Source: Eledone cirrhosa
Lineage: Eukaryota
Assembly (NCBI GenBank): GCA_964016885.1
Contig: OZ024743.1
Span: 199,516,001 to 199,580,000, forward strand
DNA: 64,000 nt
Direction of reading: 5' to 3'
In this document: in pieces, positions 4,573 to 61,775 of the stretch
How positions within the stretch are numbered: the first letter of the stretch is position 1
Layout: every line of letters begins with the position of its first letter
Program-made: the position numbers and the translations under genes
The notes under the pieces: model-generated
What the model saw: the letters and a program-made list of their open reading frames with translations, nothing else
The model's database searches: none
Told to the model about the DNA's origin: nothing

Positions 4573-5349
4573 GTAGTCCCATTTTTTCCTACCCCTTAAG
4601 TCAGGTGTTTCATGTGTGAGAATGAAATTATTAATAATAAATGAAAAATTAGAATAGAAAAACAGTAAAAAGAATCTTTTTTTTTCCACAATGGGGTCCT
4701 GTGTCTAATAATGAAGATGGAATAATAACAACAATAATAATGATAATAATAATCATGATAATAAAAAATAATAATAATAATCATCATTGTTATAATCATT
4801 TATTATTATAATAAATTCCAATATCCATTTCCTACAATATTTTCCTCTTTCTTTACAATTATCAATTTAAAAGATTTTTTTGACAATAATTTTATTGTTT
4901 GTTGTTAAAATTACTATTATTAGTTTTATTATTAATTTCCATTCCTCGCTGGGAGTCGTCTTTCGATTGAGCTTTATATTAATATTCCACATAGAATAAT
5001 ACAAATATCATAGCTTTTGATTAGTGTTGTTGTTATCACCTTGATCCCTCCACCTATGCAGGACAGACTAGACTAAAAGGGATTGTATCTGATCTTTGTG
5101 AAGTTGAACTAGCTTTGGTGACAATTCTGGACATGTTTCGGTCTTATTAAATCTTTTCTACGCCCACATTGACGTAGCGGTTACTAACACCTGTGACAGA
5201 AGATGTTTAAACCCATTTCGTAAGAAGTTGTTTCTGATTCTGTAGGTAGATACAAAAGCCCCAACACTTTAAAGCCTTCCTATGTAAATCAAAATCTTCC
5301 AACATGATTTGATATAAGAACTATATATTATGTTGCGAATACCATCTTA

Positions 5350-5930
5350 ATAATTGTTTCTACTTTAGGCACAAGGCCAGCAATTACCCAGTGCATTACT
5401 GGTACTTTATTTTATCGACCCCGTAAGGATGAAAGGCAAAGTCAACCTAGGCGGGATTTGAACTCAGATCGTAAAGGGACGTAACTATGCTGGAAAGCAT
5501 GGCGTCCGACCCTCTACCGATACTGCCAATCCACCGCCATCTTAATAATGACGTCTAGTTTAGGTACTAGGCCAGCAATGTGGGTTATGGAAAAGCCGAT
5601 TATATCCAGCCCAGTACTTAAAGTGTACTTTTTCTATGGACTCCGAAAGGATGAAAGGCAAAGTTAACCTCGGCGGGATTTGAACTAAATGCCACAAAAC
5701 GTTTCGTTCAGCGCTCTACCAATCCAGCCAAGCCTCTGCCCTCTTTATCCTAATACTTTTGGCACAAGGCCAGCAAATACCCAGTGTATTACTGGTACTT
5801 TATTTTATCGACCCCCGTAAGGATGAAAGGCAAAGTTAACCTCTTTATCCTAATAATTGTTTCTACATTTGGCACAAGGCCAACAATTATCCCAATGTAT
5901 TACTGGAACTTTATTTTATCGACCCCGTAA
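5350..5930 (-). mobile_element. Cluster of four SINE copies or fragments
   Basis: Repeated GGCACAAGGCCAGC...GGTACTTTATTTTATCGACCCC. Confidence 0.85.
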
Positions 5931-6329
5931 ATTTATCCTAATAATGAAATAATTTTAGTAAATCCCTCCAATTTCTTTTTATTAATCAATCGAAATATAG
6001 TAGCTTTCATAAGGAATATGGTAATGGATCACGATAGGTTGAAGTCCCTCTCATTAAAACACCAAAGAAACTTCCGTTTAGATGCAATCTCGTAGGAAGC
6101 CAGCCAAACCTACAGAGGTATACGCTGTAAATTTCACATTTTCACACACGCACATTCCATTACCATATTCCTATATATATATTTAGAGAGAAACAGTTCT
6201 AGTCCTGTAGAAGCCATTTCTATATCAAATTTTGTAAATACTCTACTAAAGTATTGAGTACTTCACTTACTGCAGTTAATCCCGATTGAGCCTGGGACCC
6301 ACACACACACACACACACACACATATGTA

Positions 6330-6459
<130 letters not shown>

Positions 6460-6603
6460 CAAAGGTTATATTTAATTATATTTAATTTGTTGGAATTCAA
6501 CAAACTTAAAAGTTTTATAACTGATATAAAGCACTCAACAAATAAGTGGAGTAAATATTCATTATATTAATATTTATAAAACCATATATATATATATATA
6601 TAT

Positions 6604-6697
6604 ACGTATCTGACGACCGTGTTGATTTCAGAGTCAGGTGTGATCACCATATCGATCGTGCCTCGAGCTGGTCGCCCGAGAAACATTTGTAATATGT
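6604..6697 (+). ncRNA. Type I hammerhead ribozyme candidate with long stem II region
   Basis: Stem I ACGTAT/ATATGT, CTGACGA (6610), GAAA (6680), ACA-TT-TGT, GTA triplet; AATAAA at 6700; base of stem II pairs poorly. Confidence 0.55.
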
Positions 6698-6850
6698 CCA
6701 ATAAATTCCTTCCGTCGCAACACTGATTCTCTTGTTTCTGTGATATCATACTCTGCTCTACGAGGGCATTGAGTGCTTATACGGCCTACCGCATACGGAC
6801 GCTTTAAGCATCCAACACCAAACATGTATATATATATATGTGTGTGTGTT

Positions 6851-6899
6851 GAGATTCCTGATGATTTCTCAAGAATGAAACAGTTCTAGCCTTGTAGAA

Positions 6900-6903
<4 letters not shown>
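6851..6903 (+). ncRNA. Type I hammerhead ribozyme, free-standing between (TG)n and (TA)n
   Basis: Stem I GAGATTC/GAATCTC (7 bp), CTGATGA, TTCT-CA-AGAA, GAAA, ACAG/TTGT, GTA. Confidence 0.85.
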
Positions 6904-6973
<70 letters not shown>

Positions 6974-7233
6974 GCTATGTGTTGAACGTCAAAATATAGG
7001 ATGGTTCATACAAAACTTATCGGAGGTTTTCTGAGAAGCCTTTTAATTATGAACGACCATTTCACTACCTCCTCTCCCTCGTAGTTCATTCAAGTCCTCA
7101 CTCACTCATCCAATCTTTTACTCTGCTCCCCTTCTTTCCTTGTCATTCTCGCTGTCCTTATATATAACCCCCTCTCTCTCTCTCTTTCTCTTCTCTCCTT
7201 CTTATTATCTCCTATACACAGACATATTTATAC

Positions 7234-7270
<37 letters not shown>

Positions 7271-7287
7271 CACACACACACACACAC

Positions 7288-7322
<35 letters not shown>

Positions 7323-8555
7323 TAAAGGCCTCCTTCAGTCACGAATGACTAATGGGATTTGCACCTGGAAAGTTTGCTTTCCAAGACAAAAGTCCGAGCA
7401 AGTCACCCATGCATACTAGTGTCCCCTCTGCATGTCACCAATGTCGCCCAAGAGAAAGGCAAAGGCCGATACAGCTTGGCACCAGTGACAATGAGTGAAT
7501 TGGAGCAAAGTGTCTTGCTTAAGAACACAACGTATCGCCCGTTCCAGGAATCGAACTCAACCATACGATTTTGAATTCGACGCTCTAACCTCTAAGCCAC
7601 ACATACACACACTGCACCATCCGATATCAACAAGCACCACTACAAGGAAAGAGAGCTAGAAAGGGAAAGAGTACTTAGGCGATGTAGGTGGGGCATGTGG
7701 TGAAGTAGATGTCGCTGCTGCATGTGATACAACAACAAGAGCAATAACAACAGCACTGCCACAAAATATGGGACTTACTAATCATTATGAAAATACTTGA
7801 AGAAAGTCAAAGAAAATATCTATTATCAACAGAAGCTTGTTTGTTTATGTGCGGATAGTGGTGGTGGCGATGGGGGGTGGTGGTGATGGTGATGCTAAAG
7901 AGCTGGTGGGGAAGTATTTCTAATGGTTATAATGGTCGTAGTGATGATGCTAATACTAAAAAAAGGTGGTGGGCTGTATTTTTAATGGTTGTGATCGTGC
8001 TGATATTAAAGGAAGTGGTGGCGGCGGTGGTGGTGTTGGTTTTTTTTTTTGGGGGGGGGGGGTCAGTGGTGAGTGATATTGGTGGTAATAGTGATGGTGG
8101 TGGTGGTTGTTGTGATGCTGATATAAAGGAGGTGGTGGTAACAATTAGTGTTGGTGGTGATGTTGATGCTAAGAGGAAATGCTGGTGATGGTGGGAGTGC
8201 AGCTACTGTTTAATATATACATTTTTTTTTCATTCTTTATTTATGTCTTCATAATTTCGTGGTATTTAAATCATATAATAGATAATACCTGGCGATTAAT
8301 TAAACGTCCCATACCTACCATCTTACCTGCCTATCTGTTTACCTATCTGCTCGTGTATCTACCTATTTCTCTTCTATGGTGAAAGTTCTATGTAGTCTAT
8401 CGACCTGTGAGAAATAGCAGCCAGATTCTCTTTATATCTTCTACCATCTGACAAAGAAAAGGGACATTGCATAATGTAGATCTGGATATGTGTAACTGTG
8501 GAAGTAATAAAAACAACGTTGCACATTCAATGAGTTTTGTAGTATGTGAATTGCA

Positions 8556-8600
<45 letters not shown>

Positions 8601-8649
8601 ATATATATATATATATATGTGTGTCTGTGTGTGTGTATATATATATGTC

Positions 8650-8712
<63 letters not shown>

Positions 8713-8878
8713 GTATGTGTGTGTGTATACATATGTGTGTGCGTGTGTGTTTCGGTAGTAATCCGCAAATGAAAGATCAAGGAGAACAGTGCTCGATCTG
8801 TTAAAAGCTTATTTGGTGTAAACAAAGTTTCATACACATAACATGTTTAGTGTATTTTGTTTACACTATATATATATA

Positions 8879-9073
8879 GGAAAAAGTATGACCCCGACGG
8901 CAGAGCTCAAGCCGTTTCGACGGTTATTTCTGGACTCCAGAAATAGCCGTCGAAACGGCTTGAGCTCTGCCGTCGGGGTCTAACATTTTCCTATTACCCC
9001 CTCTACTACCCTAAGTATTGAGTACTCTGGTGCGTTATGGTCCACCTGGTTCCTTACCACAACTCACTCGTTA
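8879..9073 (+). mobile_element. (TA)n-inserted mini element with 5' fold-back
   Basis: Near-perfect palindrome 8890-8980; homologues at 24045-24246 and 50774-50912. Confidence 0.8.
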
Positions 9074-9394
9074 TATATATATATACATAGATAGATAGAT
9101 ACACACACTGCATTTTGATAAATTTTATGCTCATATATAGCTAGCTACACATGTAGACACGCACAGACATACTGTAATATACACATGAGTGTTTGGGTGT
9201 GTATATGTATGCGAAGGTTTATTTATTTAATTATTCTGTATTATGTGTTAATGAAATCCTCAATATATATATATATGTATATATAATAAAGAGTAATGTC
9301 CCGACACTTTATAATCTAACCATACTCTATTACTCCAAGTATCGAGTTCTTTGTTGAGTAATGGTCTAACCAGTTTCAAATTGAAACCATCCTG

Positions 9395-9467
<73 letters not shown>

Positions 9468-9729
9468 CACACACACACACACATACACATACATACACAC
9501 ACAAATAGGGACGCACATGACAGAGACAATGACAGACAGTCCCATCTCATCTCCTCAGTCAACCTCTGGAAATATATATATATATATATAAAAATTTTGA
9601 GTATACCAACATCTCAGTATGCAGTTTGGAGCACTCGACGAAGTGCGCAGGTTGGTTTGGTTACTTCGGAGTAATGTAAAATAAAATAAAATAAATAAGT
9701 CAAATGTTTAAAATTTGGCTTCGTTTATT

Positions 9730-9784
9730 ACTGCTATATATATTTCGGTGACAGCCATCTTTGGCTGTGACCTCTTCAGGCAGT
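9730..9784 (-). ncRNA. Type I hammerhead ribozyme (left arm of inverted repeat)
   Basis: Reverse complement: ACTGC CTGAAGA GGTCACAGCCA-AAGA-TGGCTGTCACC GAAA TATAT ATA GCAGT. Confidence 0.85.
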
Positions 9785-10023
9785 CCGAATTCATTTGCCT
9801 AGCCTCAGAACGAATTTCTATAGACTTTTGACTGAGGAATGTTCTAACAACTGATCAATGGGAGGAGAAGAGGCCCTTTGACGCTGAAATTCGTTTGTTT
9901 AAATTCATATGATTCCAGTTCCTCAGTGAAATAACAACCCAACCAGGAACTGGGCATATCAGAGTATTGACAAAGTTAAACACCTCAACAACATGTGTAT
10001 TCGTCTCTACCACACTAATTCGG

Positions 10024-10078
10024 ACTGCCTGAAGAGGTCACAGCCAAAGATAGCTGTCACCGAAATATATATAGCAGT
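10024..10078 (+). ncRNA. Type I hammerhead ribozyme (right arm of inverted repeat)
   Basis: ACTGC CTGAAGA GGTCACAGC...GCTGTCACC GAAA TATAT ATA GCAGT; stem I ACTGC/GCAGT perfect. Confidence 0.85.
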
Positions 10079-10124
10079 AATAAACGAAGCCAAATTTTAA
10101 ACATTTGACTTATTTATTTTATTT

Positions 10125-10171
<47 letters not shown>

Positions 10172-10362
10172 AGTGGAAGCTTAGTAAAATCGAAGCTTTG
10201 GCTGTGGGCAAGCAAAGTTGACCTACAATAGGAATGAGTTAGCAAAGGACTCAATCAGGGTAGGTCCTTAACATCTTTTAACCTGTTAGTTCTTTCGTTA
10301 CTTTGGTATTGTGTGGTTGAGTTTTGCCTACCGCAATGTTCAATTTGTCAAGCTATTTAAAC

Positions 10363-10425
<63 letters not shown>

Positions 10426-10817
10426 AATGCAATGATATCATAATATCATTTTTAATCAGAAATATATAAATAAAAGTTCTTATAACCATAAATAAATGAA
10501 ATTCGTAAGTTTTTAATGATTCTATTTTACACATGTATGGTATCCATTATAACACATACACACACACATATATATACACACACACACACACACGTATATA
10601 TATATATGTATATATGTAAATATATATGTGTGTGTGTAAGCTCATATATATATATATATATATATCGGATAACCATATCCCACTTATATATGTCAGTTAG
10701 GCATCGCTTCTACAGTTGGATGCCCTTTATAATACCAACCTGTTTACAACGTGTACTGGGTGCGTTTTATGGTGGGGCCAGTGCTACTAATTGTCAGAGT
10801 GGGCTGGGTGCATTCTA

Positions 10818-10872
<55 letters not shown>

Positions 10873-10904
10873 AGATCAAAAGATGGTTAAAGGAGTTCAA
10901 TATA

Positions 10905-10971
10905 TTTTATTATGCGCATTTCAAAAACAAACATCATCAAACAATAATATTTGTGTTTTCATCAGATAAAA
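10905..10971 (-). ncRNA. Type I hammerhead ribozyme
   Basis: Reverse complement: TTTTAT CTGATGA AAAC ACAAATATTATT-GTTT-GATGATGTTTGT TTTT GAAA TGCGC ATA ATAAAA; 12-bp stem II with G-U pairs; palindromic ATGCGCAT. Confidence 0.85.
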
Positions 10972-12781
10972 CAGGAGAACATGATATGAAGGCTAAAAAA
11001 AAACACTTGTTGATAGTGCAGTTTTAAATCAACATCTGCATTGCTTTATTGTACTACAATAAAACTCACCTCCTACATATATATATATATATATATATAT
11101 AAGTGACTTCTTTGTTCGATCATCATACCAAAAGCTTAACATTATTTGTTTAAGCAGACAGTACCTGATTTAGGAGTTGCAGAAACGCCATATTGGATTT
11201 TACCGCCGTTTCCAGAGAGTCCGGGTATAATTTTCAATCATATTTTATTATTTGTTTGACCCGAATAGCTTGGTCGTTTCTATGGCTTTGCGGTTAATGG
11301 TTTAACCATCGTCTCAGTGTGTTTGGCCTTTTAACGTATGTTTATTGCTCTAGTTCACTCGTTTCTATGGAGTGCTTGCCACACATCTCGGAAGTTGTTT
11401 TTCGCTAATTTCCAATAGCCGAAATGCGATTCTCGCTAATTTATATTTATTTATATATATATATATATATTGTATTGTATTAATTAAATTAGACAATGTA
11501 ATTTACTTCTATTAATCACATTAAGCTCTTTACAGTTTTCTTTCTAATTACTATTAGTTAATTACCTCCCTAACTAATGTAACTGCTATTGGTAATTATC
11601 TTATTGTAAACTGTACAAGACTTATTCATTGCTTTATACCAATTATAATATATTTTACTAATTACTTCTTTGTAATGGGCGGTGCGTTGTGTTTTTTAGC
11701 AAGGATCTTCATTTCACGTTGCTTTTCATAAAAACACTCTCCTGTGAGTTAACCTCATAGAAGACCGACTAAAACTTTAGTTTGCTAGCTGTGGATTTCA
11801 TTTCATTTTATTTTTTCCCATTTCCGTTGCAATAATTTTTATGTTTTTAATTTTATATACAGTATTTCAACCCTTTTTACTTGGGTATATTTATTCATAT
11901 CTGTGTGTAAATTTCATTATATGAATCAAGGTATTAACGCCAACGGATTAAGAACCATAATTCAGTATTAAGAAATCAACCTGCAAGTGATTGAGCATTC
12001 GAAGAACACTTATACTTCTAATGTAATTCTTGTAGAGTATTAAGAACGTTGGAAAGAATGCTTTACAGATTTCGTTTCGGGGTTCTGAGCTTAAATCCCG
12101 CTGAGGCCAACTTTGCTTTCATTCTTCTAGGGTCGATAAAATAAAGTTCCATTGAAAGACTAGAGTTAATGAAACTGTCTCCACACAAATTGCAGGACTT
12201 GAACCTTGATTAAAAATAATTAATTATGGCTCTACACCAAAACTTTTGCCAGATTTAACCAAATATTATTTTGCAATTATTTACCCCCCCCCCCCCCCCC
12301 CCCCCACACACACATATATGACGGACTTTTGCACAGTTTCATCGACCAAGTTTAATTCACAAGACATTGGTCAACGCGAGGTTTTATATAAAATAATACA
12401 CTTACCACTGCATAGCACTGAAATAAAAACAATTCCTGCTCCTATACTTCTGTATTTTCTTTCAGAGAAACCTACTAAAATCCATCTTTAACATATAATA
12501 ATGATGAATTTCTTAATAATAATAATAATAATAGATCCCCTGAAAACTGCTAAACATTGTAAGAAAACTCTTCACTCTGTCACATTGTTTCCTCCTTCAA
12601 CAAAGCTGAAGTTTTGCTCAGAAATTCAAAGTTTATTTTTTATTTTTAGTTTATATTATCTATCATCCACCAACTCCATGCTTTCTAAGACCATTCCATG
12701 ATTGATCATTTGTTACAAAGAATTATTGTCCAATATGATTGATGGATGCTACATTCGCTCTGATCTTTGCGATTTTGCGTA

Positions 12782-12828
<47 letters not shown>

Positions 12829-13379
12829 TCTTATCTCTCTCTCCAAATGTGTGTAGAAGAAAAAATAAACAAGACACTAAATCATATAATGGCGTTATAT
12901 ATGGGAATGGATCCCTTTCGTTTTCGACGATGAGTGTTTCAATTGTTAGATTAGTAGAAGTATAACAGCCTGTTTGTGAAATCAACTTGCAAGTGGCCAA
13001 GCATTCTAACGTAATTCTTATAAAAACTCAACGTGGCATATTGTGTGACATGCTTGGTTCTTTTAATTTATAGGTACAGTCCACCCAACAGGCTTCCAAA
13101 CAGTTTCTGCACGCATATATTTAACTCACAAGGTATGGGTCGCCCTTAGGCAATGGTAAATGACTCTTGTCCAAATTGTCACACAATGGTATTGAACCCG
13201 GAAACTTGTGTTTACAAAAGAAACTTCTAAACCATTTGGCCATGCTGTGCCAATGCCAATGGTGATATTATTTCACTAAACATTTATTTATTTGGCAAGG
13301 TAGGCTGGTGAAACTGTATATAATACAGTAAAATAATTATAAATATATTTGTTTTTTATGGTGATTACTGCATTAACAA

Positions 13380-13595
13380 TGGTTTCTGATTTAGGCACAA
13401 GGCCAGCAATTCTGGGGAGGGAAAAGTTGATTAAATCGACCTGAGTGTGTGACTGGTATTTTATTTTATCGACACCGTAAGGATAAATAGCAAAGCTAAC
13501 CGCGGCGAGATTTGAACTCAGAACGTAAAAAGCCGTAACTCTATGCTACGAAGCAGGGTGACCGATGCTCTACTGATTCTGCTAATCTACTCCCC
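13380..13595 (-). mobile_element. Nin/Deu-domain SINE
   Basis: Same consensus. Confidence 0.8.
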
Positions 13596-14204
13596 TTAAT
13601 TACTGCATTAATACTAAAAATACTAATAAAACCATCGTCATTATCATTTAAAGCCCATTTCCATGTTGGCATGGGCTGGGTGGATAGTCACTGCCCGAAA
13701 GTAGGTGAGTTGGGGACACCACAGTTTATTGAAAATTAATTATTACTATTGTTACCAGTTTAAAATCAAAGAAAATCTATGAAATTGTTAGGCTTAGTTT
13801 TTTTTATGGGGTGGGGGTGAAGGCGGAAGTTGTTGCGTTTTTATTTTAAATTGAAATAATTCATCATCGTCACCATCATTATCATCATCGAAAAATCAAC
13901 CAAACGTATCGCAGCATTTCAACCATGCTAACATTACGCAGGAGGGGAAAAAATGACTGTTATCAGTTAATGATAACTATGATGGTGATGGTGATGGTGG
14001 TGGTGATGATGATGGTGGTGGTGGTGATTGTGGTGGCGATAACAATGATGTCGAGGGCAACTTCGAAAACTCGATCGATCGTTCATATTCAATGATGACT
14101 TTTATTGTTACCAACAGTAATGGTTAATGTTAGTAGCACTGTTGATAAGGATTCTACTAGTAGATGTAGTTAGAATGAGTTAGTCCTGATAACAGTAATA
14201 TTGA

Positions 14205-14710
14205 TTTCTAATTTAGGGTCATGGCCAACAATTTAGGTAGGAGTGTAGAACGTCTGTTAAATCAACCGCTGCTTGACTAGTATTTTATTTTATCGAACCC
14301 AGAAGATAAAATCGATTAAATCGACCCCAGTGCGTTACTGATGCTTTATTTATCGACCCCATAAGGATGAAAAACGAAGCTAACCTTGGCGGGATTTGAA
14401 CTCAGAACGTAAAGGACTGTAACCATATGCCACGAAGCGTGTTGTCCGACGTTCTACCAATACTGCCAATCCACCGCCCTCGGGAATTCTACCAATAATT
14501 TAAAAAATTATTTCTACTTTTGGCACACACGACGAGCAGTTTAAAGGTAGAACGGATGACGTCAATTAAATCATCCCCAGCGCGTTACTGGTATTTTATT
14601 TTATCGACCACGAAAGAACGAAAGGCATGGTTGATCCTGACGGGATTTGGAATGGCCCTTAACTAAAATGTCACAACACATTTTATCTAACGCTCTGACG
14701 ATTCTGCTGA
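14205..14710 (-). mobile_element. SINE cluster (2-3 copies)
   Basis: Same consensus. Confidence 0.8.
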
Positions 14711-15862
14711 AATATAATGATTTATTTGTGGTCGTAATGATTGCAACACATGGGCAGTAAACAGTATAATAGTAACGAAAATAATAACAGTAACAATAGC
14801 TACAGCTGGCAACAACAAAACGTTGTTGTTGCTAATGGCAACGTTTTTTTTTTGGGGGGGGGGGGGGGGGGGTAAAGTTTTTTCTTGATGGGATTAAAAA
14901 GTGATTGTAGATATGGTAATATGATAGTGGTTTTGGTGGATGTGGGTGTGTTGATTGTAGTAATGTTGCTAGTAGTGATATTGGTGGTGCTGGTGGGTAA
15001 CATGGTTGTTAGGTATAGGTTAGCTACATTATGGCTATGAATTTGATAGTGTGTGGCAGTGGGTTTGATGAGTAATGAAAAAGGTATGGAGGTTGAGTCG
15101 ATAATAATAATAATTACAAAACAACCCACACTAACGATAATAGCAAGATAGAAAGGGACCTGTAGTACATCCCACAAAAAAAAAAAAAAAAAATGAATAA
15201 ATCTGAATTTTTTTTAAAAGAGGTTTTCATTGGTGTTTTTTTTAAATGTTTATCTCTTCTTTCACCTTTCTAGTATCCCTTCTTTCCATCCTACCCCTCC
15301 TCCGCTATCAACACCACCACCACAATCAGACTCCATCTCCACGCCCTCACCTCGGACCCTAACCGGATGTGCTTCGCATCGCTCTACATGACGTATTACG
15401 TTTAATATGCAAATCAGCGAATATTTTGAAGCACGTAAAACCAAAAAGGTGTCAATGACCACCAGGCATTGTGATAATGAAGAAACTAATAAAAAGAATA
15501 TGAAATAAAACTTAAAACAAAAATAGAAAAAGAGGGAGAAGGCGGCGAAGGGCTTCTTCATTTTTATTTTATAAAGAGGGAGAGAGAGAGAGAAGGTGGG
15601 GAAAGAAATATTGTATCAGACTTTCAGAATATGTTATTATACTGTTTCATTGGTTCATTCCACCAAATATATATATTTATACACACATACACACACATAT
15701 ATATATATGTACATATACACATATATATATATATGTATATATATACACATATATATGTATATATATACACATATATATGTATATATATACACACATATAT
15801 GTATATATATACATACGTATAAATACATATATATATATATATATATGTTTATATATATATAT

Positions 15863-19680: not shown

Positions 19681-19735
19681 ATTAAACAAGCCAATCTAAC
19701 AGTTTCTTTTCTTCTTTTCTCTACTTTACAGGATT

Positions 19736-20290
19736 ATGTCTTCTAAACGCAAAAACACACCCACCAAACTCTATAAGGATAACATAATACTTGAGCGGTT
19801 ACATTCTGACACATCCGAATGTGATAACAGCAACTTAGATAGTGAAGGAGAAACTGAACTGAACTATTCTGCACGTTTTCTCTCCAAATCTGACAGTAGT
19901 GAAGATTTTCATGATTCCGACAGCGGTTCGGACAAGCCGCCAAACAAGAAGCAACGAATTCTTCAAAGTATAAGACACGACTCGGAATCCGAGCCAGAAA
20001 CTGATCTTCCACACAACATCACAACAAAACCCAACGCTGGGCTGCATCGAAAATCCATGGAAAGTGTATTGCAAAGACTCAGCTCCAAATCTCCTGGAGT
20101 TCAAAATTCTGACATTGAGCGAACCAGTCCGCTCGGAAGCGCTGACCATGAAGGAGGAGTGCTGGAGAATGTTAGCGCTTTACTCCGAGGAAAAGGGTCC
20201 ATACAAGATAAATCTAAGAAAATCGTTGACATGATTTCACAACTCCAAAAAATGAACGAAAGCTTGAAAAAACAAGGCGAAAATACCAGG
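19736..20290 (+). CDS. Coding exon (185 codons, phase-0 donor), probable N-terminal exon of a SoxD-group (Sox5/6/Sox102F-like) transcription factor
   Basis: Branch-like CTAAC (19696), polypyrimidine tract and CAG acceptor ending 19731; ATG at 19736; AGG|GTAAGC donor at 20291; complex non-repetitive peptide. MSSKRKxxPTKL, KSMESVLQRL and the heptad segment KKIVDMISQLQKMNESL match my recollection of invertebrate SoxD N-termini. No HMG box in the window, so identity is less certain than exon status. Confidence 0.75.
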
Positions 20291-24832: not shown

Positions 24833-25396
24833 AATTGTTTGAACGAAAATGTTTGCATTATGGATGTAGATTCTGTCATAGAGTTTGTTGTCATTACTTG
24901 TATGTGTATAGATGTTTCTCTGTGTGTGTGTGTGTGTCTGTTCACTCACCACCTTTGTATATCGACTGATGGTGGTGATATATATATATATATTGTATAT
25001 CGACTGTTGGTAGCTTTGATACGATTGTAGCTTGGAACTGGTGAAAGAGGTCTCTGAACGATTATGCAACGTTATTAAGTCACCATAGCTTGCTTCTGTG
25101 TAGATTCAGTCCTTTTCATATTCAGTGTTGTGACGGTGGATAGCTGGATAGTTCGGGGATGTGGGCCTTCCCCAACACTCTCCCTCATGCCTCACTCAGT
25201 GTTCGTTCATCCAGATTTTAGATTACCTCAGGAAGGGAGAGAACCAATCTATAAAAATACCTAACTAACCAGCTAGTCAAATTTCGTCTTCACCCTTCCC
25301 TCCTCTTCCCCCTTCTTCACTCCTCACGACCCACCCCACCCCACCCCATCAGCTTCTAAAATATCTACCTTTAATCATCCACTGTTTCAGTCCTAT

Positions 25397-26188
25397 TAAT
25401 TGTTTCTTCTTTTGGCACAAGGCCAGCAATTATCCCAGCAGTGTATTACTGGTACTTTATTTTATCGACCCCGTAAGGATGAAGGGCAAAGTTAACCTCA
25501 CGGGATTTGAACTCAGTCCGTAAAGGGACGTAACTCTATGCTGTAAAGCATGGAGTCCGACCCTCTACCGATACTGCCCATCCAGTCATATTAATGACAC
25601 TATCACAGCAGCAATAGACATAACAAGAAACTTTAGTCTTCTATCATCAACATTCTCCACGTCGCCATCAACGTCACCATTCTCATTGTTATCAACATCA
25701 TCATCATCTTCATCAATATGGTCCTCCGCATCATCATTATCAACCTCGGTGGATTGGCAGTATCGGTAGAGAGTCGGACACCATGCTTTTCAGCATAGAG
25801 TTACGGCCCTATATGATCTGTGTTCAAATCCCACCGAGGTCGACTTTGCCTTTCATCCTTACGGGGTAGATAAAATAAAGTACCAGTCAACGCACTGGAG
25901 TCGATTTAATTAACCCCCCCCCCCCCAAAAAAAAAAATTGTTGGCCTTTGTACCTATATAAGAAACCATTATGATCAACCTCATACTTCACCTCATTATC
26001 ATTGGATTGGCAGTATCGGTGGAGGGTCGGACGCCATGCTTTGCAGCAAAGAGTTACGGCCCTTTATGGTCTGAGTTCAAATCCCGCCGAGGTTAACTTT
26101 GTCTTTCATCCCTACGGGGTCGATAAAATAAAGTACCAGTAATACACTAGGATAATTGCCGGCCTTGTGCCAAAATAGAAACAATTAT
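25397..26188. mobile_element. SINE cluster (-,+,+)
   Basis: 25397-25583(-), 25748-25970(+), 26003-26188(+). Confidence 0.85.
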
Positions 26189-26509
26189 CAGTATCATCGT
26201 CGTCGTCGTCGCCTTAGACCTCACCGCCGTCATTATTGCCGTCGTAGTCGCCACAATATTTATCTGCTTCTGTCGCTACTACACCGTGTCCCCACAGATG
26301 TCTGAGATGATAGTTGAAAACAGGGTTCTCTCCACGTGTCTCCACAGATGGTCTGACATTGTAGCTGTAAGCAGCTTTTCTACACATCAAAGAAGGTTTC
26401 GTCAAACATTGTCTGCCAGTTTCTCCATGGCGAGCAGCACTTTAGCTCTGTGACCTTTTCTTCTTTCCACTGATGCATAAGGAAAGTTTATTAGAGACCT
26501 GTCTACCCA

Positions 26510-26944: not shown

Positions 26945-27133
26945 ATAATTGTTTCTATTTTGGGCACAAGGCCAGCAATTATGCCAGTGCATTACTGGTA
27001 CTTTATTTTATCGACCCCGTAAGGATGAAAGGCAAAGTTAACCTCGACGGGATTTGAACTCAGACTGTAAAGGGACGTAACTCTATGCTGGAAAGCATGG
27101 TGTCCAACCCCTCTACCGATACTGCCAATCCAC
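26945..27133 (-). mobile_element. Nin/Deu-domain SINE
   Basis: Full-length consensus-like copy. Confidence 0.85.
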
Positions 27134-27146
27134 TATATAATATTTT

Positions 27147-28574: not shown

Positions 28575-30800
<2,226 letters not shown>

Positions 30801-32023
30801 GTGGGATCACAGGTAAGCTAACTAAGAACATAGATTCTTACATGTGGCCGGTGCTCTGGGCAATAAGTAGCAGCAAGTGCCCACAGAATACTAGCTCATT
30901 CAACTGCGCAGAGGGTTCTATAGAAATAGCGGACAGCTTCCGTTATCTGGGTGACAAAATCAGCAGTGGGGGAGGGTGCTCTGAAAGTACAGTATCTAGA
31001 GTCAGAACTGGATGGAAAAAGTTCAGAGAGCTTATAACCACTATTAGCCGCTAGAGGGTTCTCCCTAAAAATGAAAGGCAGGTTATACGATGCCTGCATA
31101 CGAACAGCAATGCTGCATGGCAGTGAGACCTGGGCATTGTGTGCAGAGGATATACGCAGACTAGAGAGGAACGAAGCTTGCATGCTCCGCTGGATGTGCA
31201 ATAGTAATATACGTGAACGGCAAAGCATAAACGAACTAAGGAAAAAATTAGAAATAAGAGGGATCAGATGTTGTTTACTCGAGAGAAGGCTACGTTGGTA
31301 CGGTCACGTGATGCGCATGAAAGACGACAGCTGTATAACAAAGTGCAGGGCAATAAAGATAGACGGTAGCCACGGAGTAGGCAGACCCAGAAAAACATGG
31401 GACGAGCTGATAAATTCCGACCTCACACGCTTACACCTCTCCAAGACAATGTCACTGGACCGAGACCTTTGGCGGTACTCAGTAATAGAGAAGACCCGCC
31501 TTACCTAAATACAAAGTAAAAACCTACTACAGTCAGTAGGCACCTCTATCAAAACACACCCCCGTCCCACCACCTTCCACCCCACCCACACCGCCCCTTT
31601 CAATGTAAAGTTATGTTGGTCCCACCAACATCCAGGCCGAAACAAATGAGATCGTGTAGGTGTCACGACAAAAAACACACAGTCCACGCTGTAAATGTGG
31701 CCGTGTAGGCAACACGGTAAAAACCTCCTAGCCCCACACTGTAAATGTGGTTGGTGTTAGGAAGGGCATCCAGCTGTAGAAAACCCGCCAGACAGTCCCA
31801 CGCTGTAATGTGGCCGTGTAGGCAACACGGTAAAAACCTCCCAGCCCCACACTGTAAATGTGGTTGGTGTTAGGAAGGGCATCCAACTGTAGAAAACCCG
31901 CCAGACAGTCCTATGCGAGCAAGACAACCACTCTTGCCTCAAGTGGGAAAACCCCCGTCCAAACCCATGCAAGCGTGGAACACGGACGCTAAACCTGATG
32001 ATGATGATGATGATGATGATGAT
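30801..32023 (+). mobile_element. 5'-truncated RTE-clade LINE (frameshifted C-terminal ORF, 3' UTR, (GAT)n tail)
   Basis: DSFRYLGDKI...RVRTGWKKFREL(frameshift)PLL...KGRLYDACIRTAMLHGSETW...RRLRWYGHVMRM...GRPRKTW...DRDLWR; zinc-finger remnant [12 protein letters not shown] at the 5' break; stop at 31508. Confidence 0.92.
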
Positions 32024-32200
32024 ATATATGTAAAAGTTCTATTTAAATTGTTGGGATACAACAAGCAAATATTTTTATAACTGATATAAGCACTCAACAA
32101 ATTATTGGAGTAAAAATACGATATATTAACAAATCTGGGAGCTTCCAACAGAAATGGTAGCATTCTTTAAGGGTATGTCAATATTTATTTATAAAAAAAA

Positions 32201-32439
32201 AATGAGATCGTGTAGGTGTCACGACAAAAAAACACACAGTCCACGCTGTAATGTGGCCGTGTAGGCAACACGGTAAAAACCTCCCAGACACACACTGTAA
32301 ATGTGGTTGGTGTTAGGAAGGGCATCCAACTGTAGAAAACCTGCCAGACAGTCCTATGCGAGCAAGACAATCACTCCTGCCTCAAGTGGGACTACCCCCG
32401 TCCAAACCCATGCAAGCGTGGAACACGGACGTTAAACGT

Positions 32440-32473
<34 letters not shown>
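32201..32473 (+). mobile_element. Duplicated RTE 3' UTR with (GAT)n tail
   Basis: Near-identical to 31644-32023 but without the internal tandem duplication of about 115 bp. Confidence 0.85.
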
Positions 32474-32788
32474 ATATGTATATTTATATATGTATATTTA
32501 TATATGTATATGTATATATATATATGTATATATATATTTATATATATGTATATATATATTTATATATATGTATGTATGTATATATATATATGTATGTATG
32601 TATATATATATATATATGTATGTATGTATATATATATATATATGTATGTATGTATATATATATATATATGTATGTATATATATATATATATGTATGTATA
32701 TATATATATATATGTATGTATATATATATATATATGTATGTATGTATATATATATATATATGTATGTATATATATATATATATGTATG

Positions 32789-32819
<31 letters not shown>

Positions 32820-32845
32820 GTATGTATGTATATATATATATATAT

Positions 32846-33658
32846 AATGGAAAATTTGAACAGGAACAAAACAGAGAGGCAGTACAACGAATGTTTATTA
32901 ATTTCACGCTCTTGAGAGTGGGGTGGTGGTGGGGAACGACGTTTCGGGCATAAGCCCTTCTTCAGGTGAAAAGTGTGTGGGAAGAGAGTTCAAAGTGTGT
33001 GTAGGGGAGTGGTGGAGAGACATATAACGAAAAGGGGGTGGGAGGAAACGGTGCAAATGAAATTAAAAATAAAAGCATGATCAAAATAAAATTAAAATGG
33101 GGTAAAACAGGTGGTGGAAGGGTGTGGGGAGGGCTGAAGGTGGTGTGTGTGTGTGTGAAAGCAAGGGTTGGGGGAAGAACGGGGTTGCATGTTCAGGAAG
33201 AGGTGTGTGTGGGGTGGGGTGTAGGTCGGAGCGTGTGTGGATAGAGGGATGGGGGGAGAGGAATCCGGAGGCTGAATGTGTAAATATGTTGTGGAACGCA
33301 CATGTGTGTGGGGTTTAAGCGTGTTGTGGGTGTAGGTGGCGTGTGGGCAAAAAAATTTTTGGGGTGTGTGGGTGAGTCAAAAAGGTGATTCCGTAAGAAG
33401 ATGTTGTGGAATGGTTAGTAAAATCCTAGGATGGTAGTTGATTCCGCGGTCAAGGTCCACATACGAGTAATCCGTGAAGAGATTGGTCGGAAGAGGGGAG
33501 ATGCGGGGTGCGCGCGCAACAGGAAGTGGTCAAGGCAGCAGGAGTGCTGCGTGTCTGTGTGTGCTGGGAGGTGGTCAGAAGGCATAGCAGCAGTAGGGTG
33601 GAATGGTAAAGGTGCGAGGATGGGTAGGTGTGAAAGTTGGAGTGAGTAGGGGGTGGTG
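32846..33658 (-). mobile_element. Second copy of the Penelope-like 3' region with hammerhead
   Basis: Collinear similarity to 50942-51810; same terminus (ATGGAAAATTTGAACAGG on + strand) abutting (TA)n. Confidence 0.85.
32935..32968 (-). ncRNA. Minimal hammerhead ribozyme in Penelope-like 3' region
   Basis: Reverse complement: CAC CTGAAGA A GGGC-TTAT-GCCC GAAA C GTC GTT; minimal GAAACGTC form; stem I very short. Confidence 0.7.
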
Positions 33659-33832
33659 CAAGCAGGTTGGTATATAACCCCTAGCTCCAATAATGATGGG
33701 TATGAAGCTAAAGGTGTATCTTGGATACTGGATTTGTAAACTCCTCATCAATGGTCCGTAGATGTCCTCCTTCTCCTGTATTTTTCTGACAACGTTTACA
33801 TCAAGTGGGCAGCTGATCTCCTCTACAGAACA
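33659..33832 (-). pseudogene. Restriction-like endonuclease fragment of an R4/NeSL-type (RLE) non-LTR retrotransposon
   Basis: Manual translation: [58 protein letters not shown], matching the RLE pattern E-x-SCP-x-D-x-N...EK...Y..L...PIIxGAxG; absent from the ORF track. Confidence 0.75.
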
Positions 33833-36348
<2,516 letters not shown>

Positions 36349-48695: not shown

Positions 48696-48774
48696 TCTTT
48701 CTATAGGTTGATTCGATAATCGCTGACCTAGGGTTAAATGACAGCAGCGGCTAACATTGTACTTAGTATTATTA

Positions 48775-48940
48775 GAGGGTCGGACGCCATGCTTTGACGC
48801 ATAGAGTTACGGCCCTTGCCATTCTGAGTGCAAATCCCGCCGAGGTTAACTTTGCCTTTCATCCTTACGGGGTCGATAAAATAAAGTACCAGTAATACAC
48901 TGGGTATTTGCTGGACTTGTGCCTAAAGCAGAAACAATTA
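48775..48940 (+). mobile_element. Nin/Deu-domain SINE (5'-clipped)
   Basis: Same consensus. Confidence 0.8.
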
Positions 48941-48944
48941 TTTT

Positions 48945-48979
<35 letters not shown>

Positions 48980-50912: not shown

Positions 50913-50944
<32 letters not shown>

Positions 50945-51031
50945 GGAAAAATTTGAACAGGGACAAAACAGAGAGGCAGTACAATAAATGTTTATTAATT
51001 TCACGCTCAGGAGAGTGGGGTGTAGGTGGGG

Positions 51032-51065
51032 GACGACGTTTCGGGCATAAGCCCTTCCTCGGGTG
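51032..51065 (-). ncRNA. Mutated minimal hammerhead (CCGAGGA core) in Penelope-like 3' region
   Basis: Homologous to 32935-32968: CAC CCGAGGA AGGGCTTATGCCC GAAACGTC GTC. Confidence 0.55.
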
Positions 51066-51903
51066 AGAAGTGTGTGGGAACAGAGTTCAAAAGGTGTGTA
51101 GGGGAGTGGTGGAGAGACATATAGCGAAAGGAAACGGTGCGAATGAAAAATTAACAAATAAAGATAAAAATAAAAATAAAGCATGATCAAAATACAAGGA
51201 ATGAGATAAATTTAAAAATAAAGGCATGATCAAAATAAACTGAAATTAAAAGGGGGGTAAACAGGTGGTGGAAGGGTGTCGGGTGAGTAGGGGTGGTGGC
51301 GGGTGGATTGGGTAGAGGGAGACGGGGTGTCCGAGCGGGGAGGGCTGAAGGTGGTGTGTGTGTGTGTGTATGTGAAAGTAAGGGTTGGGGGAAGAACGGG
51401 GTTGCATGTTCAGGAAGAGGTGTGTGTGGGGGGTGTTTTTGTGGGTCGGAGTGTCTGTGCGTGTGTGGATAGGGGGGTGGGGGGGAGAGGAATCAGGAGG
51501 CTGAGGGTGTAAATATGTGGTGGAAAGCACGTGTGTGTGGGGTTTAAGCGTGTTGTGGGTGTGGGTGGCGTGTGGAGAAAAAAATTGTTGGGGTGTGTGT
51601 GTGGGTGAGTTATATAGGTGATTACGTAAGAGGATGGTTGAAAAGTTGGTAAATTCCAAGGATGTTTAGTGGATTGGTTGTAAGTCAATTTCTGCGTGTG
51701 GGTAATCCATGAAGCGGTGGTCGGAAGAGGAGAGATGTGGGGTGCGCGCGCAACAGGAAGTGGTCAGCAGTGGGAGTGCTGTGGTCTGTTAGTGCTGGGA
51801 GGTGGTCAGATGAGGGGTGGAGTGGAGGTGTTAGTATTGTTAGTGTGGGGTGGGCGGTGAAAAGGAGGGGTGTGTTAGTGGTGTTAGTGGGGGCGGTCGA
51901 ACG

Positions 51904-52188
51904 CTAAAGGAATAAGGGTGGGGAGTTCAGGCCGGGGGGTGTGTGGGTCTGTAAGATGAAGATAGTTCGTTGTTCCACCGTAAGGCGATGGGCGGATGTT
52001 CCGTGGCACTGGAGTAGGCCACAGACTGTGAGATGGTGTGCGGAGTGTCCAGGGCCACCAAAGTGGCGGGCGATGGGGGAACTGCCCCCGAGACGAATAT
52101 CCCGGAGGTGCTCCGTGACTCGGTCCGCCAGGCGACGTCCCGTCTGTCCGACATAAGTCGTGCTGCACTGCACTCCGTGCAGCGAAGT
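51904..52188 (-). pseudogene. GIY-YIG endonuclease C-terminal fragment of a Penelope-like element
   Basis: LRCTEC(frameshift from TGCAG duplication)STTYVGQTGRRLADRVTEHL...PIARHF...RLTVEQRTIFILQTHTPPGLN; YVGQT, R, EH, E and GLN motifs typical of PLE endonucleases. Confidence 0.88.
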
Positions 52189-52250
52189 TATATATATAAG
52201 TTATATATATTGTAGCGTATATTATAACGTATATTGTAGCGTATATTATT

Positions 52251-52426: not shown

Positions 52427-54286
52427 TTTCGGAAGAATAGGGTACACCATTGGGTTAAGCAGGGCACCCACAGTTGGCCTAGCCTAGGGTACTAAATACC
52501 CTAGTGATGATACTCTTTCACTTTCCAAACCACTTAATTTCACGTTGCTCCAGTTAACTCAGCTGAAATTGAATACCAACCGCAACAGGGCGTCAATCCG
52601 GCAATGGACTTAACTCCAATGGGACCAGGATAAGCTTCGGCCGAACTTAGGACAGACATAACGTTTTATTTTTACCCCTTTCTGACCATATGTCTATTGA
52701 AATACACTGTACTTAGTTTAATTAATGATTAACGTGGGATAATTTATTAAGACTATTAATTATTTTACAATTAATAATTGTATTTGTAACATAACTTAAC
52801 AAAAGGTTCTTATATAAAATCAGATTTGAAGATTTTATATTAGAAATCAGTAGATTTCTAGTGTAAACTTCCAGTCAGTCAATAGATAGGGGTTTGTAAA
52901 CAATAAACGAGTAATTATTGTTATATTTGGGGAGAGTCAAGTTGTCATAATATTGCCAGAAATATATAGTAAAACACATTCACTGTTTGGTTGAACGAGT
53001 AAATTTTCATTCAATTGTATATATAGTAGTAATATTTTTAGACAGTATAATATTTCGATAAGAACCCATTAAAAGGGGCCAGTTTTGTTTCATAGAAGCA
53101 AAACTGGCTTTGTGCGGATTGATATCAAAAGTGTTAAACACTATATACCTGAATTATTGTCTTGGGAGAATAAAAAACCAAGTTTTATTAGTCAGAAGAG
53201 TAATAAAAACTTAAATACAAATAACAAAGTAACTATAGTTTTCCACCCTTCAAAATATTATGACGGTTTGTAAACCCAACTAGGCTGTTTTTTTAATAGC
53301 TATGGTAATGTTAGTCTGTTCAATATATGAACTATTACAATGCTTATATATTTGTAGCTATGTTGTATTGTTATAATAGATGTATTTTATATATTTGTCT
53401 AGCTGTGGATAAAGTGATATAAAACATTCTACACACACAACACTGGATTTACACATAGTGTGGCCCTAGGCGATAAGGACCTTGAAAGTAACTTGTTAAA
53501 ACGTTACACTAGGTCTCACGAGAATTGAATTATGTTGAGGCTCCTGTAGACTTTAAGGACATAAGCTGTAGTTCGCACAACTTATATCTAAATCCAGCAC
53601 TAACACACGTACACATACATTCACCCTCTGATTTCCTCTGTATATGTGTGTGTTTGTAGTCTGTGTAAGTGTTTACAAACATAATAGTTGATTGCAGTGT
53701 ACGTGTGTGTACGGGAAAACCCTCGCCTTAAAATACATATTCATTGCAGTGAGATTTTCACTGTAAAATCTATAGGTTATAACTTTCAGCATATATGCGT
53801 GTAAATATTTATCTGTGCACCACTTACTAAGTTCAATGCACACATTCATGCATAGATGCATAGATTCATAAATTCACATAGATGCATACGTGCATTCTTA
53901 TATTCATACAAACATACGTGCATAAATGTGTGTGTAAGAGTGCTTGGACCTTAAATATCTATAGGGAATGTACTTATGTTGATTGCTTTTAATAATAATA
54001 ATAATAATATTTCCTTCTCTTTACAGACAGAAGATAGTAATGGTACTGTTCAAAAGTCAAGTGCACCAGGTATTTAACTTTCTGCTTATAATATTGCCTA
54101 TTTAACGACTCCTCCGCCCTCTTCCTGTCTCTACCGTCCTTAATATACCGAACATTAGACATCATTTGGATGTCAGCGACCAGAACGAATGACTGAAGAC
54201 TGAATATTGTTTGTTCCGTTTGTATCATTTCATTCCGTCGCCACTATATGTGTGTATGTATGTATGTATGTATGTATGTATGTATG

Positions 54287-55071: not shown

Positions 55072-55188
55072 AATGTGGTTCAATGGCTAGTTAATAAATT
55101 AACGAGCCAGAACATATATAATCAAGGTTTAGCAAATAAGAAAAAGTTTCAAATAAATTTCAAAAAATTCACTGTACTCACTATGGTT

Positions 55189-55275
55189 ACCTTTACCGAA
55201 TCGGTTTCGAGTCTCAAAAATAAATGGACAGTCCTTGCGGCCTTCCATTTTAAAGATAAACTCTCGTCAGAAGGT
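55189..55275 (-). ncRNA. Type I hammerhead ribozyme with extended stem II (left arm of inverted repeat)
   Basis: Reverse complement of 55553-55639. Confidence 0.88.
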
Positions 55276-55552
55276 TCCTTTCACTCGGAGAATGTGTCCC
55301 TGGACGCTTTTTGCGTGTAGGGATATATACTTTATTATTATTATCCTCCTCTTGGTCGAGATAAAATTTGGTCGTTTTGACTGCTGCTATTTATAGTGGT
55401 AGTAGACTGACCTCCCTGCCTCTGCTTCTATCTTTACACACGGCACTGGCCATAATTGCTTCCACATCATTCATTCTCATCTTGGGAACAATTTTGAATA
55501 GCGCTAGTTCGTAATTTGAACTCGGGAATTTTATATTCTCCGAGTGAAAAGA

Positions 55553-55639
55553 ACCTTCTGACGAGAGTTTATCTTTAAAATGGAAGGCCGCAAGGACTGT
55601 CCATTTATTTTTGAGACTCGAAACCGATTCGGTAAAGGT
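55553..55639 (+). ncRNA. Type I hammerhead ribozyme with extended stem II (right arm of inverted repeat)
   Basis: ACCTT CTGACGA GAGTTT...AAATGGA...TCCATTT...AGACTC GAAA CCGATTCG GTA AAGGT; all three stems pair. Confidence 0.9.
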
Positions 55640-55706
55640 AACCATAGTGAGTACAGTGAATTTTTTGAAATTTATTTTGAAACTTTTTCTTATTTGCTAA
55701 ACCTTG

Positions 55707-55789
<83 letters not shown>

Positions 55790-60574: not shown

Positions 60575-60984
60575 TATACATATGCATACAGGTACACATA
60601 CATATATGCACGTATCAGTTTAGCGGCGCTAACGTCGCTTTGTTCGTTTGTAAACAAACTGAACAGCCTGAATTTATGCCATACCGATTTAACTCACTCA
60701 ATATGCAAATTAGGCTGCTCAGCCGTTAATTTTCATAAGGAAAGTATATACTTTCGAACGTTCAACTATCTGGCAGATGGGTAAACGGTGCTGATGATAG
60801 CTAACAAGCTTGAAACTAGTACATCGTTCCTGTGTCAGTGTTGAACAAAAAGGTGACGTGGTTGCCTTAACACCGTATGGCATAAATTCAGGCTGTTCAG
60901 TTTGTTTACAAACGAACAAAGCGACGTTAGCGCCGCTAAACTGATACGTGCATATATGTATGTGTACCTGTATGCATATGTATA

Positions 60985-61392: not shown

Positions 61393-61775
61393 TATAGCGA
61401 TTAGGTCTTCAAAATGTTTATTATAAACATACAGAATATTTTCGAATATTCTGTGTCTATATTCACATATATATCGCTATTTCAGAGCATTTATTCCAAT
61501 TTCTAATTTCTGCCGGACCGGCAACCGCTCTTTCAAACCAGTTCCTGTACACAGCTAAGTATTCTATAAGTCTCTAGCTGTGTCATTCTCGATGAAAGCA
61601 CTGGATATGTAGTCCTGATGAATTCTAACAAGAATGAAACGCGTAGACTTACTTCCCTTGCTTTTATCGAGAATCTAATTGTAATACGTGACGTATTCTA
61701 TTCTATAGCGATTAGGTCTTCAAAATGTTTATTATAAACATACAGAATATTTTCGAATATTCCGTGTCTATATTC

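Follow-up and report, generated by a model that had tools for sequence, protein, structure and literature searches.

At one place in a 64-kb window of Eledone cirrhosa DNA (the window being the whole stretch that was analysed), a piece of a LINE with a restriction-like endonuclease (RLE) runs directly into the 3' region of a Penelope-like element (PLE), raising the question of whether this is a hybrid of two retroelement classes. We found that the junction is most likely an ordinary one-off accident and not a new hybrid element. This animal DNA is rich in repeats and contains long (TA)n tracts. Read on the minus strand, the composite consists of (TA)n, then 174 nt that are coding and ~810 nt that are C-rich, then (TA)n again, with the RLE piece and the Penelope-like part in the same orientation. 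The features of the composite and of a sister copy of its Penelope-like part are as follows.

33833..34282, no strand: (TA)n tract upstream of the RLE piece
33659..33832, minus strand: RLE LINE fragment, 58 codons of a C-terminal restriction-like endonuclease, cut at both ends
33654..33659, no strand: junction zone, where loose ends at 33654, 33655 and 33659 were compared by eye with the window
33580..33658, minus strand: C-rich proximal 3' UTR of a Penelope-like subfamily, covered by family contigs
32846..33579, minus strand: Penelope-like 3' region or pseudo-LTR, common to the copy at 50942 and ending at (TA)n
32936..32967, minus strand: candidate minimal type-I hammerhead motif, with the core, one extra base, a 4-bp helix II, no loop III and a 2-bp helix I
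32473..32845, no strand: (TA)n/(TATG)n tract that follows the Penelope-like end
50942..51903, minus strand: 3' region of the sister Penelope-like copy, with a hammerhead motif at ~51033-51064
51904..52190, minus strand: GIY-YIG remnant of the sister copy, C-terminal and 5'-truncated, with a CxxC in a shifted frame

The original prediction had described the upstream piece as a stop-free RLE fragment of 58 codons. Positions 33832-33659 on the minus strand do form 58 codons without a stop, which alone is weak evidence of coding (among 5000 shuffles, 804 carry such an open stretch in one of the six frames). The fragment has 164 relatives at E ≤ 0.001; the best match is P0004 (E 1.4e-25, 81% identity over 58 residues). 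The long relatives are single ORFs of ~1130 aa containing a reverse transcriptase (RT), a CCHC knuckle and a C-terminal PD..E..K domain, and the fragment maps to the C-terminus of these RT-bearing ORFs. The best solved relatives of their RT are R2 proteins. A structure model of the relative P0006, made from 25 sequences (pLDDT 90), gave 7 PDB matches at E ≤ 0.001, all of them R2 proteins, and the domain is predicted to fold like the R2 zinc knuckle and endonuclease. R2 was missed when a sequence profile of 25 relatives was compared to the PDB and was recovered by the fold search instead, while Pfam and PDB searches with the bare 61-aa peptide gave chance matches only. Because its homology is strong, the solved relatives of the RT are R2 proteins and the modelled fold is R2-like, the piece is identified, by homology and structure prediction, as an RLE-type LINE.

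Within this LINE the clade is likely R4/Dong-type, on the basis of no N-terminal finger by Pfam, the microsatellite context and the motifs, which we take to be like those of R4/Dong. Neither a C2H2 finger nor a Myb domain was found by Pfam (E ≤ 0.1) in three long relatives, although published Myb detection needed HHpred. The long relatives resemble the R4/Dong clade (Dong, Rex6 and octopus Dong-R4) in ORF architecture, and their lack of an N-terminal zinc finger by Pfam and the microsatellite context may be further likenesses. In contrast to that clade, only 58 codons are present here, and the tracts seen are TA/TATG, where (TAA)n is reported for most Dong elements. The fragment's first codon is ~12 codons past the PD motif, and 38-41 codons at the end of the ORF are missing from it, as is the 3' UTR. 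With no start codon, RT or PD motif, it could not give rise to a working domain. The rest of this LINE is not found in the window, apart from one stray match (E 0.57).

The Penelope-like part was examined by comparison to the copy at 50942, with which it had been said to share about 750 bp of 3' sequence including a hammerhead. This was borne out: 32846-33579 (734 nt) aligns with 50942-51810 (869 nt) with 646 matches and 70 mismatches, the copy at 32846 having gaps of 57 and 63 nt relative to its sister, with (TA)n beginning after the same base in each. No third copy of this region is present in the window. The adjoining 33580-33658 aligns with the sister copy only at chance level (175 of 1000 shuffles score as well). 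Upstream of the shared region the sister copy has a 96-residue frame (52190-51904), and the GIY-YIG remnant that had been proposed there was recovered: the frame resembles GIY-YIG clusters in Atlas (0.95) and shares 48% identity with P0186, a protein with PF01541 (E 3e-8) and a CX4CxxC linker. A direct Pfam scan was blank.

A CxxC precedes the YVG motif of the sister copy in a shifted frame, and because of this the endonuclease is, judged by its sequence, of the canonical Penelope-like type with a C-terminal endonuclease, not Hydra; the Hydra clade lacks the CCHH motif, but CxxC is present in both the sister copy and P0186. Linker and clade definitions follow the available portions of PMC8557442. 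The Penelope-like part is likely of Neptune/Nematis type by the same features. With canonical elements it has in common a C-terminal GIY-YIG, seen in the sister copy, a 3' repeat that carries a minimal hammerhead motif, truncation on the 5' side, ends at (TA)n and, in its nearest relative P0186, the CX4CxxC linker. It differs from them in that no RT is present in the window and the linker is seen only in that 48%-identical relative. Both the 32846 and the 50942 copies are truncated, and none of 66 candidates proved to be a longer relative.

The hammerhead core is intact at 32965-32938, and in the sister copy the core at 51062 has U4 changed to C. The core, the extra base before helix II, the G-C closing pair and the palindromic helix III match the minimal hammerhead motifs described for Penelope repeats in the accessible text of PMC4209133, and by eye helix I has only 2 adjacent pairs. 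There was no hammerhead match at the Rfam gathering thresholds and the folding energy of the region was no better than that of shuffles (z -1.05). The motif reads, in its sequence, as a minimal hammerhead of the kind found in Penelope terminal repeats and a putative ribozyme. Another hammerhead-like core, unrelated to this one and also with a helix III that is palindromic, lies beside a long TA tract at 61605-61660 (+).

As had been stated, the two parts meet with no TA spacer and (TA)n follows beyond the RLE piece. The loose ends, set against the window by eye, place the break between 33654 and 33659, where a (CA)n/(TG)n run in the 3' UTR of the Penelope-like family has its edge. The exact overlap is at most 2 nt, and the proposed inspection for microhomology gave no significant signal. 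The junction is probably some tens of bases downstream of the position of the GIY-YIG stop. Since the Penelope part starts inside its 3' UTR, past that stop, the RLE piece replaces nothing functionally, and the description of an RLE "in place of" GIY-YIG holds for its position only. The reading frame stays open for 26 further codons past the junction, and these codons are C-rich UTR. The composite is dead and encodes nothing functional.

The polarity of the flanking tracts (TATG 35 vs CATA 0 on the left, 2 vs 12 on the right) was considered as a clue and is uninformative because each tract expands independently. A small repeat island lies between TA tracts at 34271-34310, with copies at 2375-2412 and 52916-52944 (84-86% similar). 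On the other side, 30722-31508 (+), 31640-32032 and 32196-32480 hold the 3' end of a LINE ORF, which we take to be RTE-like, and after it a tandemly duplicated element whose (GAT)n end directly adjoins the TA tract of the composite. The window also contains a likely host coding exon at 19733-20290 (+), blank in Pfam, whose start presumably resembles SoxD-family proteins; a SINE-like family of ~190 nt with more than 15 copies on both strands, 75-95% alike (including 650-850, 1045-1240, 5345-5550, 25390-25595, 26000-26190, 26945-27140 and 48765-48945); and short near-perfect inverted repeats at 55121-55708, 9679-10129 and 60617-60942, with arms of 76-174 nt that are 96-99% identical.

To see if the junction recurs, four public runs were aligned to 32846-33835: X1-X3 are contigs of one sample and X14 consists of RAD-seq reads of another, of which ~85% was read and which are biased to copies near cut sites. 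The best run contains 0.45 of the words of the composite, the locus itself was seen in no run and the sampled organism is possibly another species. No RNA data set is listed among the runs that contain it. The records listed were 24 of 13,048 pieces, 24 of 1,124 loose ends and 40 of 123 difference rows. Both halves of the composite are deeply covered, with a summed contig depth (which is not copy number) mostly of 10^4 to 4x10^5 and lowest, at ~2x10^3, around 33407-33472; the long single contigs listed have depths of 5-15.

In X14, 1047 reads at 33654 and 216 at 33659 diverge from the window sequence and translate, by eye, as the normal RLE continuation seen in P0005, and depth falls from 2158 (33671-33703) to 2.8 (33605-33637). 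Likewise, 19 contigs in X1 and 18 in X3 leave the window into the RLE continuation. From the Penelope side, 18 contigs in X1 and 17 in X2 pass at 33655 into a repeat of TG. Where contigs show the family letter at 33664 (50, 44 and 41 in X1-X3, 99.5-99.8% of depth), they end at most 11 letters away, and those with the family letter at 33681 (88, 83 and 80, 99.7-99.8% of depth) at most 28 letters away, these being the exact distances to 33654. By our own interpretation of these end distances, no family-letter contig crosses the junction. Window-type letters on the Penelope side drop to ~6 in a depth of 6,000-15,000 (33550 in X2 and 33613 in X1). None of the 24 pieces listed, nor any other record listed, crosses the junction, and at 33654-33659 each family continues as itself in the runs examined.

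Related sequences gave a similar picture. Of 182 relatives examined, 134 have at least 15 residues past the junction position; 117 of these are closer to the normal RLE tail, 9 are closer to the window tail and 8 tie, none exceeding 19% identity to the window tail; this is a weak test. Two related loci (55% identical, and near-identical to each other) end in plain UTR with no hammerhead core. Recurrence of the junction at independent loci was not seen in the tables as listed, from a sample possibly of another species.

The origin which we consider probable, and the simplest, is that the two elements inserted separately into a shared TA microsatellite and that the LINE then lost its 3' end, the composite having arisen once; nested insertion was among the options originally proposed. 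A 5'-truncated RLE copy would have landed in the TA tract first, and a Penelope-like copy would then have been primed at TA repeats just downstream. Copying would have halted ~810 nt in, on reaching the edge of that element's CA run, and the 5' side of the copy would have been joined into the last codons of the LINE, presumably during repair, with the loss of no less than 115 nt and the UTR. Another possibility is that the elements were neighbours and that the LINE end and the spacer between them were deleted later. Deletions may have hit the 32846 copy in any case, given its gaps of 57 and 63 nt relative to its sister.

Two insertions are favoured by the way in which each family goes on as itself at the junction in the runs examined, and by the use of TA-rich tracts by both families. 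At 33738 and 33765, further RLE copies give way to TATG repeats (217 and 226 reads in X14, each perhaps one locus), so this LINE family also sits in TA-rich tracts, and these truncations hint at a TA/TATG target rather than (TAA)n. According to the parts of each source that were available, R4/Dong elements target microsatellites (PMC7998251), PLEs favour AT-rich or (TA)n sites (PMC11167929; PMC8557442) and their enzymes cut AT-rich DNA (PMC11167929). In octopus, RLE LINEs (Dong-R4) and Penelope-like groups are both described as abundant (PMC13282606; PMC8967140), with Dong-R4 recently active in Octopus vulgaris (PMC13282606). Pen2_Av of Adineta vaga, inserted in a non-LTR element, similarly has its Penelope 5' side joined to a LINE without a target site duplication (TSD), as described in the accessible text of PMC3846280; it differs in being intact, with microhomology at its 5' join and a known target, whereas here both elements are fragments and the far side of the LINE is missing. 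Counting against two insertions are the absence of significant microhomology at the join, the shared orientation, the contact of the RLE piece with (TA)n and the lack of any other LINE piece in the window. The last three do not discriminate, since a single template switch predicts the same.

Such a switch, also among the options first raised, is possible but a good deal less probable. A Penelope-type RT primed at (TA)n would have used its own RNA as template for ~810 nt, come to a pause in the CA run, switched to RLE RNA (or continued along a ligated RNA) for 174 nt and then integrated. The shared orientation, the standard Penelope 3' end, the lack of a LINE remainder in the window and the break at a repeat edge are all consistent with this. 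The available portions of the literature also report L1 chimeras with Alu, snRNA, rRNA and mRNA pieces (10.1101/2025.02.02.635956), propose template jumps for Penelope (PMC3846280) and describe internal initiation by Penelope RT on RNA without homology to DNA (PMC11167929). The L1 chimeric retrocopies (U6/L1 and Alu/L1) resemble our composite in having foreign sequence 5' of a retroelement 3' end in the same orientation, but they are recurrent and TSD-flanked with a usually full-length 5' partner (10.1101/2025.02.02.635956, in the parts accessible), and none of these properties was seen here: the landing point is internal to the LINE ORF and a TSD is unreadable in (TA)n. Moreover, chance adjacency comes easily to two abundant families with a common target, and no positive mark of a switch was found.

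It is improbable that the composite belongs to a small family, either copied as a unit by Penelope enzymes or left from a hybrid RLE ORF with a hammerhead tail. The retained Penelope 3' end with its intact hammerhead core could serve as a template, the frame is open past the junction and the read evidence covers only part of the tables, but each family continues as itself at the junction in the listed read and contig records, and both the tails of the 134 relatives (weakly) and the two loci ending in plain UTR point the same way. We therefore set aside the hybrid family that had been suggested, and equally doubt that a Penelope-type enzyme copied RLE LINE RNA in one event whose product then multiplied into a small family with a hammerhead tail. 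Among the literature matches listed (titles and abstract openings), none reports a hybrid of RLE and Penelope, nor was there any literature combining hammerhead, restriction-like endonuclease and Penelope; the accessible parts of 10.1101/2021.04.23.441226 and 10.64898/2026.07.22.740005 describe no such chimera.

Least probable of these is an assembly error joining two repeats within a long microsatellite. In its favour, the composite is an island flanked on both sides by long TA tracts, and the junction is spanned by none of the listed records. Against it, the join lies in non-tandem sequence with no long stretch common to the two families, and each part has private changes of the sort expected in an old genomic copy. 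An endonuclease swap was rejected, as the RLE piece has no start codon, PD motif or RT and shows no alignment with the 50942 element beyond chance (scores as high came from 237 of 300 shuffles).

A one-off junction matters little, being one more fused pair of dead repeats, although automatic repeat libraries could be led by it to build a chimeric consensus. If many Penelope-to-LINE joins were found at one site, or more than adjacency predicts, cross-class template use would be shown. Such joins, if true, would bear on how PLEs gained or exchanged their endonucleases, a question left open in the available text of PMC8557442. A hammerhead-tailed family, if true, would mean sequence exchange between telomerase-like retroelements and LINEs, and a route by which endonuclease domains might pass between classes.
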